29,035 nucleotides of DNA from a virus (taxonomy: Duplodnaviria > Heunggongvirae > Uroviricota > Caudoviricetes). The stretch lies in the IMG/VR virus record IMGVR_UViG_2671180727_000026; one strand, written 5' to 3'. The notes below the pieces were generated by a model. It had not been told where the DNA came from, did not search any database, and was given only the letters and a program-made list of their open reading frames with translations. Below, piece by piece: positions 1 through 4,078 of the stretch (its first letter is position 1; every line of letters starts with the position of its first letter). Both the position numbers and the translations under genes were made by a program.

Positions 1-192
1 TTAATCCCCCACCAGCTTACTTTCTTCCTCAATGAGGAAACTAGCGACACTTCCCGAAAGGCGCGCCAGTAGGCTCGCCAGCGCGGATATATCAGCATCT
101 GTAATTTTGTTCGGGTATACCTCAAGAAGGCGGCAAATAATTTCTGTCTGGTGCGCACGTTCAGCGGCTTCGTGTAATGTGATTTCCTGCAT
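1..192 (-). CDS. hypothetical small protein (63 aa)
   Basis: Complete ORF with ATG start at 190-192 and stop at 1-3; start overlaps stop of upstream ORF by 1 nt (TAATG), suggesting translational coupling. No family recognised. Confidence 0.3.
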   Translation of the reverse strand: MQEITLHEAAERAHQTEIICRLLEVYPNKITDADISALASLLARLSGSVASFLIEEESKLVGD

Positions 193-377
193 TAATGCAC
201 CTCTTTTAATTCATACACTGCTGAAATAATGACTTGTGATAAGCCATATTCTGATGATTCGCTTCTCACCGCAGCAATAGCCGTCTGAACATTAACAGCC
301 TTCACGTTCTGAGTGATACCAATTGTGTGGCCCAGTGGGTTAACAGCTCGGGCAAATACACGGAAGGTTTTAAGCAC
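192..377 (-). CDS. hypothetical small protein (61 aa)
   Basis: ORF with GTG start; overlaps the upstream ORF end by 8 nt and the downstream ORF start by 1 nt, forming a gap-free chain on the minus strand. No family recognised. Confidence 0.28.
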   Translation of the reverse strand: MLKTFRVFARAVNPLGHTIGITQNVKAVNVQTAIAAVRSESSEYGLSQVIISAVYELKEVH

Positions 378-573
378 GGCACACCTCCTGACGAATACGG
401 GCGGCGAATACCATCACGCAGCCAGTTGGGGATTGCTGGCGGGCTTCCTGTTCGCTGATGGCCTCGATGGTAATCATGCGCGGTTGTGCCGTACTCAAGG
501 CGATAAAACGCCAGATGTATTTATTCAGGTTGTGCGGGTCCCGCCCTTGCGGGTGTGTGGTATGATTTCTCAT
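370..573 (-). CDS. hypothetical small protein (67 aa from internal ATG at 571-573)
   Basis: ORF 370..684 in the six-frame track; first ATG gives MRNHTTHPQ... Divergent from the small RHH gene on the plus strand. No family recognised. Confidence 0.25.
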   Translation of the reverse strand: MRNHTTHPQGRDPHNLNKYIWRFIALSTAQPRMITIEAISEQEARQQSPTGCVMVFAARIRQEVCRA

Positions 574-772
574 AGCTACCTCGATACTGTTGCTATCGTT
601 GGTGGTTAGAAGCCCGTTGGTGTTCCCAGCACCTTCGGGCTTTGCTTTTTTAAGTGCCCCCGTGTTAAGGTGGTCACCTAACAATGAAAAGGCTAATTCA
701 ATAGGTGGTCACTTGTCAACGATCAAACGCGATAAAAGTCCTAAGGGTGATGGGCAATCTCCACAATTCAGA

Positions 773-904
773 ATGCGAATTTCTCCAGAGCTAAAAGAGC
801 AATTCGACAAAGAAGCGCAGAGCGACGGCATAAGCCTAGCCAACTGGCTTAAAGAATTAGGGCGCAAAGAGCTGCTACGGCGCGGTATTGAACCAAAAGG
901 ATAA
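773..904 (+). CDS. small ribbon-helix-helix (Arc/CopG-like) DNA-binding protein, putative
   Basis: C-terminal part of ORF 590..904; sequence MRISPELKEQFDKEAQSDGISLANWLKELGRKELL resembles the beta-strand plus two-helix pattern of RHH regulators. Start uncertain (alternative TTG at 713 preceded by GGTGG). Immediately upstream of the SWIM gene. Confidence 0.35.
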   Translation: MRISPELKEQFDKEAQSDGISLANWLKELGRKELLRRGIEPKG

Positions 905-931
905 GAATAATTGAAGTCAAGGAGCTAACAC

Positions 932-1288
932 ATGAAATACGAATTCTTCGCAACAAGTAGCAGTAGTTTGGATGTATACATAGTCACTGTATCAAACGAT
1001 TCTGGCTCGCTAATCATGACTTGTAATTGTCCAGCAGGAAGTAAAGGTATTCTATGTAGACACCGTAAAGCTTTAATTACCGGAAAAATCCGTGGTATAT
1101 TCACTCCCCCAAGAAGGAATAATCCTGAAAAATTACAAGAAGCTATAAATTTAATAGCCACATATGGCATAGATAAAACATTAAAGTTGTACACTGATGA
1201 GTTAGAACGAGCAGAACAGACTTGGATAAGTGTTCGCGATAATTTGAGAGCAATGATAAACGCTCTTGTTGAACCACCTAAATATTGA
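932..1288 (+). CDS. SWIM zinc-finger domain protein (118 aa), function unknown
   Basis: Strong SD (AAGGAG) 7 nt upstream of ATG; motif CNCPAGSKGILCRH fits the SWIM CxCx(n)CxH signature; AT-rich coding sequence. Confidence 0.6.
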   Translation: MKYEFFATSSSSLDVYIVTVSNDSGSLIMTCNCPAGSKGILCRHRKALITGKIRGIFTPPRRNNPEKLQEAINLIATYGIDKTLKLYTDELERAEQTWISVRDNLRAMINALVEPPKY

Positions 1289-1354
1289 ACTGTTCACATT
1301 GCCTATCAGGCGATAACCTCGTATTCTGATTAAGGCTAACTATATACTCACATT

Positions 1355-1379
1355 GGCGACCAATTCTGGTCGCCTTTAT
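1355..1379 (+). terminator. rho-independent terminator downstream of the SWIM gene
   Basis: GGCGACCA-attc-TGGTCGCC stem-loop followed by TTTAT, sited between the convergent SWIM and DUF2971 genes. Confidence 0.5.
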
Positions 1380-1419
1380 CCACCATTTTTATAATATCAT
1401 AGATTAAAAGTGTTAATCC

Positions 1420-2250
1420 TTACCCCCTGAATGGAATTGATGAGGATTTAATTTCCACAGAACTAAATCCTCTTGAATCCAAGAACATTTTTATACCAGC
1501 CTCAATGAAATCATAATCGTTTGTCGGGCCAATTGTAATGCTTTTAATTGGTAACTTTCTATTATCTTTATTATCAATGATGATATAAGGGATGATCCCA
1601 TTATTATTTATTCTGAAGTGCACATCTGGCATTTTCATCCACGGAGTAAATACCAATCTAAATTCATTCTCTTCGATAAAACTAGGATGTTTAAAAAATG
1701 GGATGTATTTAGATATAAATTGATACGTAGAGACCATTGTTACAAAATGATCATTCATTTCTTTAATATTAATACCATTACAAGAAAAAAACTCTCCCAA
1801 CTCCTTACTCATCTTAGTAATATCGTTATTATTTGAATATATAACATCATGTGCAACACAATTTAAATAAATATTTTGAGAAAAGCTCACAAGTTCATCC
1901 GCATCAAACTCAATGCAAACACCCTGTTTATTTCCGTAACCTCTCCACTGACTTAACTTATCGTTTTCCTTACAAAAAGAGATGCTATAAACATGTTTAT
2001 CAATCCCTTTTTCTTTTTGTAACCTCCCTTTCTCATACATGTCAAGAGACTTGAGCAAAATAGTTTTCTTATCTTTTGGAATGATATTGTCATCAACTAT
2101 TTTAATTGTATTTCGAAAGCATTCACATCCATGGTTAGACTCCTCTTTATCATTTAAGAAATATATGTTTGTAGCCCATAAAGAATTAGAGTCTAATATA
2201 CCTTTCAAACCAAAAAGATCTGTATAATGAAATATAGCCACAATGCCCAC
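1420..2250 (-). CDS. DUF2971-family protein (276 aa), function unknown
   Basis: Long ORF in a markedly AT-rich segment; contains LSQWRGYGNKQGVCIEFD, resembling the SxWxxY...GxCIxF core I associate with DUF2971. Starts 7 nt after the AlpA stop on the same strand. Start codon GTG, exact start uncertain. Confidence 0.65.
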   Translation of the reverse strand: MGIVAIFHYTDLFGLKGILDSNSLWATNIYFLNDKEESNHGCECFRNTIKIVDDNIIPKDKKTILLKSLDMYEKGRLQKEKGIDKHVYSISFCKENDKLSQWRGYGNKQGVCIEFDADELVSFSQNIYLNCVAHDVIYSNNNDITKMSKELGEFFSCNGINIKEMNDHFVTMVSTYQFISKYIPFFKHPSFIEENEFRLVFTPWMKMPDVHFRINNNGIIPYIIIDNKDNRKLPIKSITIGPTNDYDFIEAGIKMFLDSRGFSSVEIKSSSIPFRG

Positions 2251-2257
2251 CTAATAG

Positions 2258-2488
2258 TTAAGTTGTTTCCCACTCACCTCGAATCCATGCCTGCACTTCT
2301 GAAAGACGATATGCAACAGCAGTGGAACCAATCTTGATCCGCTTAGGAAATTTTCCTTCCTTCTCCAGCTTCCAGCGTGTGCTGTTCGCAAGAGTGGTTA
2401 GCTCCCGACATTCTTTCTCACGGATCATTCGGTCAATGTTAGGAATGTACTCCAGACCCTTTTTATCAACAATTGCCATTTTTTTCAT
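2258..2488 (-). CDS. alpA: AlpA-family phage transcriptional regulator / excisionase-like protein
   Basis: Small protein with ...RELTTLANSTRWKLEKEGKFPKRIKIGSTAVAYRLSEVQAWI, matching the AlpA (prophage CP4-57 regulator) HTH pattern; lies directly downstream of a P4-type integrase. Confidence 0.8.
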   Translation of the reverse strand: MKKMAIVDKKGLEYIPNIDRMIREKECRELTTLANSTRWKLEKEGKFPKRIKIGSTAVAYRLSEVQAWIRGEWETT

Positions 2489-2489
2489 G

Positions 2490-3670
2490 CTAACCAGCCT
2501 TTTGTTTGAGGATTGTCACTTTTGAATCAGCAGCTGCGATGCTATTGAGATATGTAGTCCAGAGTTCCAGAGCATCCAGTTTTTTAGCCATAAACTTACT
2601 CCGGTTGTAAACACCTGCCACGCCAGGTAGCGCATGGCCTAACAGTTGTTCTACTACATAAAATTCAACACCGAGATCACTTAGATGAGTAGATAGCGTT
2701 CTTCTAAGGTCGTGTAGTGACCATTGTTTTTCATGGCCCAAACGTTTACCGATTTTCCCCCCAATCTTGCTTACGCTTTCTCTAATTCGCAGACTTCCCA
2801 GCACATAACCAGTATGTTTTGTCTCTTCGTGAACATCCGTTACCCACTGTCGTAAACAGTCCAAACCCAACTTTCGAGATCCCATTCGCTCCATTCTGAT
2901 AATCGGGCTTCACTCATTCGACATCCAAATACTGTACAAAGCACAAACATTTTTCGCGTGTATTCAGACATTAGTTTTAAATCAGGCTCGACAAAAATTG
3001 CCTTCCAGAGCTGGCCGAGTTCGGCTTCATCCAGAACCCGATCCCGCTTACCTGCAATCTGCCCCACATCACTCATGCGCAAATCCTTTAAAGCATCACA
3101 CGTCGCGTACTGGCGTACCCGACAAAAACGAAGAGCTAATTTAGTGTCAGAAAAAACATACGCCGCCATAACTGGTGCATTACGTTTAATTCGGTCAAAA
3201 CAGTCCAGCCATTCATATAGGTGAGTGTCATTTACGGGCAAATGACCGATATAGGGAAAGATATGCTTTCGAAATCTGCCAAGCGTTACAGCATGAGTTT
3301 TACGACGCACCTTACAGTAATTTTCATACCAGTAATTTAGTGCATCCTCCACTGTAACTGGCTTTAAGCGTTCTTCAGCCTGAATCTTAATCTGGATACG
3401 CGGATCACGTTTGTCAGCCAACCAACCACGGCACTCGTCGCGCTTTTCCCTTGCCTGTTTGAGTGACATATCAGGATATTTACCCAACGTTAGCCAGACC
3501 GGAGCAGCCCGGCCACCTGCTAACCTGTAGAAGAAAACAAAGCTCACAGCCCCTTTAGTACTCACACGAATAGAAAGCCCCTTTCCATCAGCAATGGTGA
3601 TCTGCTTTTCTCTGGGTTTCCCCAGATATCCTTTAAGCGCTTTGTCGCTCAGTTTGTTCTCGCCAGCCAT
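2490..3670 (-). pseudogene. P4-type tyrosine integrase, apparently frameshifted (N-terminal and catalytic parts in different frames)
   Basis: ORF 2840..3721 encodes the N-terminal arm/SAM-like part (GKGLSIRVSTKGAVSFVFFYR...); ORF 2490..2894 encodes the catalytic C-terminus (HDLRRT, LLGHA, VAGVYNR with the tyrosine nucleophile). They overlap at 2840-2894 in different frames. Confidence 0.75.
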
Positions 3671-3802
3671 TTTTAGCCCCAAAAAGCAATACAAGCTGCA
3701 ATACAGAGATGATTGCAACACACAGATAACGAGGAAAATTCAGTGAAAGCACCAGATAAACTTATTCTTTATTATCAAAAGATTAAGTGTAAAAACCAGC
3801 AA

Positions 3803-4078
3803 CTACACGAAAGCCTCAGAAAGCCATGCTAAGTGCTTGGGCTTGACATATCCCGGCGTAAATTCAGAGGTGGAGCCGCCACGGGAACGGATAACCTCAC
3901 CGGAAACAATCGGCGAAACGTACAGCGCCATGTTTACCAGTCCCGGAATTTGTGAGAGATAGACTTTCTCCGTAGTGAAGGGATAGCTCTCACGGAAAAA
4001 GAGACGCAGAAACAGCGGATCAAACTTAAATTTCTGCTCATTTGCCGCCAGCAGCTGGGCGGTTGTGTACATCGACAT
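3803..4078 (-). pseudogene. E: major capsid protein E, 5' remnant only (about the first 90 codons)
   Basis: Translation MSMYTTAQLLAANEQKFKFDPLFLRLFFRESYPFTTEKVYLSQIPGLVNMALYVSPIVSGEVIRSRGGSTSEFTPGYVKPKH matches the lambda gpE N-terminus, then diverges (LAWLSEAFV-stop). Lambda-like sequence ends near 3833. Confidence 0.85.

Follow-up and report, generated by a model that had tools for sequence, protein, structure and literature searches.

A DUF2971-family gene behind alpA in a capsid-gene-embedded phage satellite: a predicted ADP-ribosyltransferase and candidate anti-phage effector

The stretch of DNA analysed here (the window) is the IMG/VR virus record IMGVR_UViG_2671180727_000026, a sequence of 29,035 nt assigned to the Caudoviricetes, and the gene under study is an open reading frame (ORF) near its left end that encodes a protein of the DUF2971 family. 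The positions of this gene and of the features around it are given in Table 1. Two GTG codons could serve as its start. The one at 2241 is the RefSeq start of the identical gene in Escherichia coli LR-50, where the product is called 'DUF2971 domain-containing protein', and an AGGTGG Shine-Dalgarno sequence can be read in front of it; residues are numbered from this codon throughout. The stop codon of alpA lies at 2258-2260, leaving a gap of 7 nt to GTG 2250, as stated in the initial annotation, or of 16 nt to GTG 2241, and the DUF2971 gene shares the minus strand with alpA and the integrase gene. An estimate by eye that the gene is roughly one-third G+C, far below its neighbours, was borne out by measurement: the G+C content of the gene is 0.308 (0.292 at third codon positions). 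The window as a whole stands at 0.485, alpA at 0.442, int at 0.452 and the head genes of the lambdoid prophage at 0.566, so that 30.8% in the gene faces 44-57% around it. The ORF is intact and its product differs from the representative of its sequence cluster (398 member sequences from 217 contigs) at 2 of 273 residues (99% identical). An 830-nt ORF at 31% G+C with a family match and a large cluster is far beyond chance.

The carrier of the gene is a helper-embedded phage-inducible chromosomal island (HE-PICI) at site E:Phage_cap_E:80, within the lambda-E-like capsid gene of a lambdoid prophage; 201 instances of this site have been reported (Tommasini, Mageeney & Williams, 2023; PMC10111431). 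Upstream of the capsid gene fragment E', on the same strand, are the D (decoration), protease, portal and terminase genes of a DLP12-like lambdoid prophage. E' is co-oriented with int-alpA-DUF2971 and all the late genes are on the minus strand. Joining attL and attR gives ...GYVKPKH/EVNPQM... (the slash marks the junction) and restores an uninterrupted lambda E sequence, and window positions 3900 to 3740 are the published E_Phage_cap_E_80 attL save for one core base. A 13-nt repeat found between both element ends, AAAAAGCAATACA, was considered as the att core and rejected; it sits just upstream of int.

The locus is complete in E. coli LR-50, where the capsid gene is split by an element of about 11 kb. 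The order is int, alpA, DUF2971, a convergent SWIM zinc-finger gene, and an Icd-like gene with small ORFs, followed by DUF4222, primase and single-stranded DNA-binding protein genes, the element's own capsid (E-like) and decoration (D-like) genes and a helix-turn-helix gene; the remainder of gene E is found past the element. The features of an HE-PICI are present, namely the capsid-gene insertion, an integrase and attP of the 11capE clade, AlpA, primase and a late zone. The initial annotation had seen the locus as a tRNA-associated integrative island with a P4-type integrase, and this view has to be given up. ARAGORN finds no tRNA gene in the whole window, the insertion being within a capsid gene instead, and no psu, sid or delta is annotated in the complete LR-50 element, so the carrier is not a P4-like satellite. 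The only feature that it shares with P4 is the Icd-like gene.

The DUF2971 gene is a discrete, exchangeable cassette in a variable ('dynamic') zone of these satellites. Pairwise blastn places the break-points at 1275/1276, at the 3' end of the SWIM gene, and at 2268/2269, within the last ~10 nt of alpA. In other E-site satellites blastn aligns 1.85 kb of the int-alpA flank at 95-96% identity (megablast gives 97.8-99.5% for the parts that it matches), and the content after alpA differs. In the E-site satellite of E. coli KE47, a 291-aa TIR protein (locus L008, 1048-1923; Pfam CAP12/Pycsar TIR, 1.2e-33; PADLOC PDC-S35, 6.9e-67) replaces both the DUF2971 and SWIM genes. A 178-aa uncharacterised gene on the opposite strand fills the slot in three further strains, and the UTAK-5 HE-PICI, which is inserted in the terminase gene (A-site), keeps a 70%-identical SWIM gene and has a BRO-N gene in the DUF2971 position. 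A survey of 5,426 complete E. coli genomes found the DUF2971 locus in 36, of which 33 keep at least 80% of the gene; a few copies are partial or disrupted by an insertion sequence (IS). The data support the earlier description of the gene as horizontally acquired cargo directly behind int-alpA, and show that the alpA-proximal slot of HE-PICIs swaps defence-type cassettes (DUF2971, TIR).

Membership of the DUF2971 family, proposed in the initial annotation from a SxWxxYG...GxCIEF core, was confirmed by a profile search. Pfam PF11185 matches the window protein with an E value of 1.2e-11 and 46.2 bits (gathering cut-off 22) over positions 1-89 of the 89 in the profile, and the core is present as LSQWRGYG...GVCIEFD. 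The profile also matches all of the 40 homologues that we aligned, which go down to 30% identity, and PHROG 1762 spans the full length of the window protein (E=3.8e-26). There are 22 invariant residues in the 40 homologues, all of which are present in the window protein. They include H5-Y6-T7, W22-A23-T24, N30-D31, W99-R100-x-Y102, K184 and E191-x-E193-x-R195. A bioinformatic survey has predicted that DUF2971 belongs to the H-Y-E clade of ADP-ribosyltransferases and is related to DarT, with a strictly conserved Tyr in motif II, an ExE motif III and large helical inserts, and has reported similarity to DarT, AbiGi and Tox-ART-HYD1 (PMC12522546). The invariance of H5, Y102 and the ExE fits this description, and by that reading H5 would be motif I, Y102 motif II and E191/E193 the candidate catalytic ExE. 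The Pfam model spans only residues 98-196, so that motif I lies outside it. The Glu of GVCIEF varies among the 40 homologues; it is probably not the catalytic one, and the invariant ExE is that at residues 191-193.

Structure prediction points in the same direction. The AlphaFold (AF2) model of the window protein (pLDDT 88.1, pTM 0.85) has the beta-sandwich fold of ADP-ribosyltransferases, with H5 in strand 1 and E191-x-E193 where a strand begins, and its best structural matches are DarT and Tpt1. Foldseek independently ranks DarT at the top (probability 0.97, E 7e-3), although the match is moderate, with 133 of the 273 residues aligned. This agrees with the ADP-ribosyltransferase assignment of PMC12522546. 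The model also has two large helical inserts (residues ~30-74 and ~141-182) and additional strands at the C-terminus, which might serve in autoinhibition or sensing. The N-terminal HYTD segment gives matches to Pfam Tox-ART-HYD1 in 14 of the 40 homologues, all below threshold (for the window protein the best is E 0.003 and 14.8 bits, cut-off 25), and none of the 40 has a match to DarT/DUF4433 even at E<=5. A profile search of PDB chains gave matches to GABA receptors only, on an LW..FLND motif, which were discarded as spurious, and a search of viral folds (BFVD) gave weak matches to uncharacterised phage proteins only. Taken together, the data make it highly probable that the window protein is a DUF2971 member with a predicted ADP-ribosyltransferase fold. 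The statement that DUF2971 has no established function is out of date, given the prediction in PMC12522546 and the finding that Aristaios, a DUF2971 protein encoded by a 316-aa single gene on the Lactococcus plasmid pUCCL641_199, confers resistance of the abortive-infection type (Grafakou et al., 2024; PMC11381338).

All eight retrieved homologues of 44-60% identity (from Buttiauxella, Klebsiella aerogenes and several Enterobacter species) occupy the int-alpA slot of a satellite, which in each case interrupts a capsid (E) or protease-capsid gene of a prophage. This DUF2971 clade appears to be confined to such satellites. In K. aerogenes GCA_036282765.1 the satellite occurs twice, as an integrated copy (CP142846.1; L003, 8201-18754) and as a 10,541-bp circular 'plasmid' record (CP142848.1; L004). 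The copies are 99.97-100% identical, with a 13-bp junction overlap, AAAACCACGATTT; judged by these sequences the 'plasmid' is the excised circular satellite, which is evidence for excision of such elements in culture. The Enterobacter E-site satellites have, in addition, a conserved gene of 254 or 255 aa between alpA and DUF2971 (L015, 7212-7976; L104, 6205-6969; L005/L007, 9207-9974). This gene has no Pfam or PADLOC match and a weak match to PHROG 2611, is not in the window, and could represent either further cargo or a partner.

Homologues of lower identity (30-40%) occur in other surroundings. One adjoins an operon of the anti-phage system CBASS in an integrase-bounded island of Pseudomonas putida, another lies amid toxin-antitoxin and transposon genes in Symbiopectobacterium, and others are on Enterobacter plasmids. 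The E. coli IncF plasmid pTW11681_81 (L100, 5692-8565) has an operon encoding a DNA-binding protein, a hypothetical protein, a DUF2971 protein (39% identity) and, directly after it, an Abi_C 'abortive infection family protein'; this is the one operon of that arrangement that was inspected. A match is present in 411 E. coli plasmid records, truncated remnants included, and plasmids of the size of pO157 keep a 61-residue N-terminal remnant. At least 563 species-representative genomes from many phyla have a full-length relative, and a search of the DUF2971 profile against 1.84 billion cluster representatives (50% identity) gave 28,831 matches at E<=1e-3, of which 7,608 reach E<=1e-30; the best 150 of the 28,831 span nearly the full profile length.

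We surveyed the neighbours of DUF2971 genes at 37 loci of different genera, taking two genes on each side (148 proteins). No neighbour family recurs more than three times, a count reached by Abi_C, AbiJ and integrases, which belong to the commonest. The 148 also include a Lamassu LmuB, a type I restriction-modification specificity subunit, a DpnII-type endonuclease and plain housekeeping genes. The G+C content of the gene is below that of its flanks at 32 of the 37 loci, and by at least 10 points at 13. In summary, DUF2971 is a mobile stand-alone gene without an obligatory partner, and is often, though not always, in defence or mobile surroundings.

Table 1. Features of the window at and around the DUF2971-family gene
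Feature	Position	Strand	Remarks
Satellite part within the window	1-3841		Insertion at codon ~82 of the capsid gene
Icd-like gene	370-684	-	NCBIfam phage_ICD_like, E=1.8e-18
YlcI/YnfO/Arc-like gene	590-904	+	Start uncertain; PHROG Arc-like repressor (4.5e-6) and transcriptional repressor
Direct repeats AGGTGGTCAC	668-687 and 703-722		Copies AGGTGGTCACC and AGGTGGTCACT, 35 nt apart
SWIM zinc-finger gene	932..1288	+	118 aa, 36% G+C; Pfam SWIM, E=2.6e-5; PHROG 13130, E=1e-82
Limits of the exchangeable cassette	1276..2268		blastn of the window against related satellites (L008-L011, L111, L112)
G+C-rich hairpin GGCGACCA-ATTC-TGGTCGCC	1355..1374		Between the convergent SWIM and DUF2971 genes
DUF2971-family gene	1420..2250	-	276 aa from GTG 2250; likelier start GTG 2241, giving 273 aa (WP_016247984.1)
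alpA, excisionase/activator	2258..2488	-	76 aa; Pfam Phage_AlpA, E=3e-15
Tyrosine integrase, HE-PICI clade, inactivated	2490..3670	-	Pfam Arm-DNA-bind_3, Phage_int_SAM_3 and Phage_integrase; two overlapping ORFs
Capsid gene fragment E' (lambda-E-like major capsid)	3833..4078	-	First 82 codons; ORF translation; RefSeq LR-50 'major capsid protein, missing C-terminus'
attL core CCCAAGCA (on the minus strand)	3834..3841		Satellite/capsid junction; attL and attR read

The integrase gene is decayed, as had been noted. Alignment with the intact 1236-nt gene of LR-50 shows a 55-bp internal deletion near 2855, which causes a frameshift. The true start of the gene is 3670 rather than 3721. The deletion is in none of the 25 E. 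coli matches listed with the full locus, which are 55-56 bp longer than the query, or more where an IS element is inserted. The satellite copy in the window is probably locked in place and unable to excise, so that the helper capsid gene would be permanently split.

No sigma-70 promoter was found between alpA and the DUF2971 gene, in a scan that as a whole was not above shuffled expectation, and no terminator is predicted on the minus strand from E' to the end of the DUF2971 gene. Expression of the DUF2971 gene is probably tied to that of int-alpA; neither a promoter-like site nor a terminator separates them. The hairpin between the DUF2971 and SWIM genes is likely to be a bidirectional terminator (the RNA of 1289-1425 folds with -32.1 kcal/mol, z -2.2); it was missed by the terminator scan by reason of its weak T-run.

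The SWIM gene, which has a weak match to PADLOC PDC-S62 (4.9e-5), is part of the dynamic zone of the satellite and not an obligatory partner of DUF2971. It is present in 53 E. coli genomes, compared with 36 for DUF2971, and accompanies the 60%-identical Buttiauxella homologue, to which it is also convergent. It was considered as an obligatory partner or antitoxin and rejected as a conserved partner, because the SWIM gene is not beside the DUF2971 homologues of K. aerogenes or Enterobacter, and occurs without DUF2971 in UTAK-5 and in about 17 further E. coli genomes. The region 370..904 is the regulatory part of the same zone, and the direct repeats between its divergent Icd-like and YlcI/Arc-like genes look like operator sites. 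The YlcI/YnfO/Arc-like ORF is intact on the plus strand, and LR-50 RefSeq has an opposite-strand pseudogene here, probably through an error of annotation or an ambiguous start.

What the DUF2971 protein does has to be deduced from its family, its predicted fold and its position. The reading that we favour, with moderate confidence, is that it is a stand-alone, single-gene anti-phage effector of the abortive-infection type, of the Aristaios kind, which would ADP-ribosylate its target with NAD+. Phage infection, or the switching-on of the satellite operon, would release the protein from a silent or inactive state. With NAD+ as its substrate, it would then modify single-stranded DNA, RNA or a component of the gene-expression machinery by ADP-ribosylation, and the modification would stop phage gene expression, so that the infection is aborted. 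This model is put forward because of the Aristaios precedent, the DarT/Tpt1-like fold, the alternation of the cassette with TIR and the lack of a partner gene. That nucleic acid in particular is the target of the window protein is a more tentative suggestion. A defence role had been offered earlier as a reasonable hypothesis, and it has gained support from the TIR protein in the same slot and from Aristaios (PMC11381338).

Several observations weigh against an anti-phage effector. Experimental evidence for such action comes from Aristaios of Lactococcus (PMC11381338) and not from an enterobacterial member, and at the level of sequence the likeness of Aristaios to the window protein is that of a shared Pfam domain. 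HMMER shows no sequence link to DarT, either in the 40 homologues or in the PDB sequence profile search. Of the defence annotators proposed with the hypothesis, PADLOC (2023 library, older than Aristaios) has only a weak and partial match of the window protein to PDC-S31 (1.3e-4, 19.9 bits) and no match for three other DUF2971 homologues. Some homologues are flanked by ordinary chromosomal genes, for example a singleton in E. cloacae. Finally, the slot often holds regulatory BRO-N genes in other satellites (PMC10111431), and position alone is therefore insufficient proof of defence.

A rival explanation places the gene in the conflict between satellite and helper, or in the satellite life cycle, and not in host defence. 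Because the gene is in line and co-oriented with the helper late operon, right behind alpA, it would be made on helper induction, and its product would modify DNA, RNA or proteins of the helper or the host by ADP-ribosylation, tilting replication or packaging to the satellite. Consistent with this, terminase, portal, protease, D and E' all have the orientation of the DUF2971 gene, the minus strand is free of predicted terminators from E' to the gene end, and only 7-16 nt separate alpA from the start codon. Helper-driven late transcription has been proposed for HE-PICIs (PMC10111431), a BRO-N regulatory gene is at the same position in another HE-PICI, and the close homologues are restricted to these satellites. 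However, the family is huge (the 28,831 clusters), and most of its members have no satellite as carrier but occur on plasmids, in defence islands or singly in chromosomes. The gene is also optional, near-identical satellites having the TIR protein instead, and the tested family member is plasmid-borne and acts on unrelated phages (PMC11381338). We regard satellite-helper conflict as unlikely. A variant with a still smaller chance of being right is an ADP-ribosyltransferase that is clocked by the helper, being made only at late expression of the helper or of an infecting relative, and that marks DNA or RNA. It is suggested by the terminator-free position downstream of the helper's antiterminated late operon together with the coupling to alpA, and the ADP-ribosylation would favour the satellite over the helper or shut out co-infecting phages. 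If true, this would be a cis-wired trigger mechanism new for any defence system.

The remaining explanations rank below the defence and helper-conflict models. DarT-like ADP-ribosyltransferases are classical toxins of toxin-antitoxin systems, and the gene might be an addiction toxin that stabilises the satellite, with the SWIM gene, the YlcI/Arc-like gene or an antisense RNA as the partner nearby. The SWIM homologue that is convergent to the Buttiauxella gene too, and a Prescottella plasmid homologue annotated as 'putative T/A toxin', are in keeping with this. Against it, there is no conserved neighbour at the 37 loci, the K. aerogenes and Enterobacter homologues have no adjacent SWIM gene, SWIM also occurs without DUF2971, and no macrodomain (DarG-like) gene is near the window gene. 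An RNA antitoxin or regulatory RNA was rejected, as neither tandem repeats nor an Rfam RNA were found and the one hairpin is terminator-like only. A toxin-antitoxin role is improbable. It is very doubtful that the gene is a decaying passenger without current function, even though the integrase of this copy is broken and the gene is IS-disrupted or partial in a few genomes: the ORF is intact, 99% identical to its cluster representative and has 22 of the 22 invariant residues, in 33 of the 36 E. coli genomes it is at least 80% complete, and full-length orthologues at 44-60% identity occur across genera. Least probable of all is a role in virulence, in which the protein would be secreted or injected and would ADP-ribosylate a target in a eukaryotic host, as has been suggested for Legionella lpg1268. 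About 18% of DUF2971 proteins are predicted effectors and the family was found via a Legionella effector candidate (PMC12522546), but the MAIFHYTD start is predicted to enter the catalytic beta-strand at once, with no leader, the gene is on a phage satellite with no secretion system near, and the E. coli strains that carry it are commensals or of environmental origin (humans, livestock, frogs and soil).

The gene is of interest because, in a family of 28,831 clusters (50% identity), one DUF2971 member, from Lactococcus, has been tested so far. A member in E. coli, carried by a well-defined satellite, offers a tractable entry to the family in the best-equipped phage-host system, one that would permit the use of coliphage panels, escape mutants and the tools developed for DarT and other ADP-ribosylating defences, and would make it possible to ask directly which of DNA, RNA and protein is the target. 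The gain is incremental, the family, the predicted fold and the carrier element being already in the literature. Two modest points appear to be new: the exchange of defence-type cassettes at the alpA-proximal slot of HE-PICIs, previously described only as a regulatory 'Bro zone', and the satellite-confined DUF2971 clade of 44-60% identity.

Among known systems, DarTG resembles the window gene in the H-Y-E-type ADP-ribosyltransferase core of the predicted model. DarT acts on nucleic acid, and the likeness suggests a nucleic-acid target and NAD+ as co-substrate. It differs in that the window protein has no DarT (DUF4433) sequence signal, two large helical inserts and extra C-terminal strands, with fewer than half of its residues aligning. 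There is also no adjacent macrodomain antitoxin: the neighbours of the window gene are alpA and SWIM, and no macrodomain is among the top 25 of the 124 neighbour families at the 37 loci. With no DarT-family match and no macrodomain neighbour, membership of DarTG was ruled out. The likeness to Tox-ART-HYD1 and AbiGi lies in the recurrent weak N-terminal H-Y-[TD] matches; PMC12522546 reports significant profile similarity, whereas every Tox-ART-HYD1 match in our analysis is below the Pfam threshold.

The slot itself recalls the defence hotspots of P4-like satellites and PICIs (Rousset et al., 2022; Fillol-Salom et al., 2022, via PMC13612085; PMC13586616). Both have a fixed satellite slot in which unrelated AT-rich anti-phage genes are exchanged, as TIR and DUF2971 alternate here in otherwise near-identical elements. 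The window slot, however, is directly downstream of alpA and not between psu and int, and DUF2971 is not among the systems that we found reported for the hotspots. The carrier is itself one of the HE-PICIs at E:Phage_cap_E:80 (PMC10111431), with which it shares attL, the integrase/AlpA zone, the target codon in gene E and the orientation. The gene profiles in that study have DUF2971 after AlpA in some Klebsiella HE-PICIs, without comment; its authors call the zone after alpA a 'Bro zone', with immunity RNAs and regulatory genes as its content, and do not discuss defence cargo. In contrast, the zone in the window is a DUF2971 cassette (TIR in relatives), and the integrase of this copy has suffered a deletion.

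Finally, the nearest precedent for the proposed role is Aristaios, which blocks phage transcription and the production of structural proteins but not DNA replication (PMC13064643, PMC12967558). The two proteins share the Pfam DUF2971 domain, a stand-alone gene for ~270-320 aa, a predicted ADP-ribosyltransferase fold and a mobile carrier. They differ in their setting and length, Aristaios being a 316-aa protein of a Gram-positive plasmid and the window protein a 273-aa protein of an enterobacterial phage satellite. Many family members have an N-terminal extension of ~35-45 aa that is missing from the window protein, and a plasmid tblastn search with the E. coli and Psychrobacillus homologues as queries surfaced no Lactococcus record. 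The abortive-infection phenotype has been shown for Aristaios only. Three Enterobacter satellites have the 254-aa gene inserted upstream of DUF2971. Aristaios works as a single gene, and the window gene, which has no conserved neighbour, is compatible with a single-gene system of the same kind.

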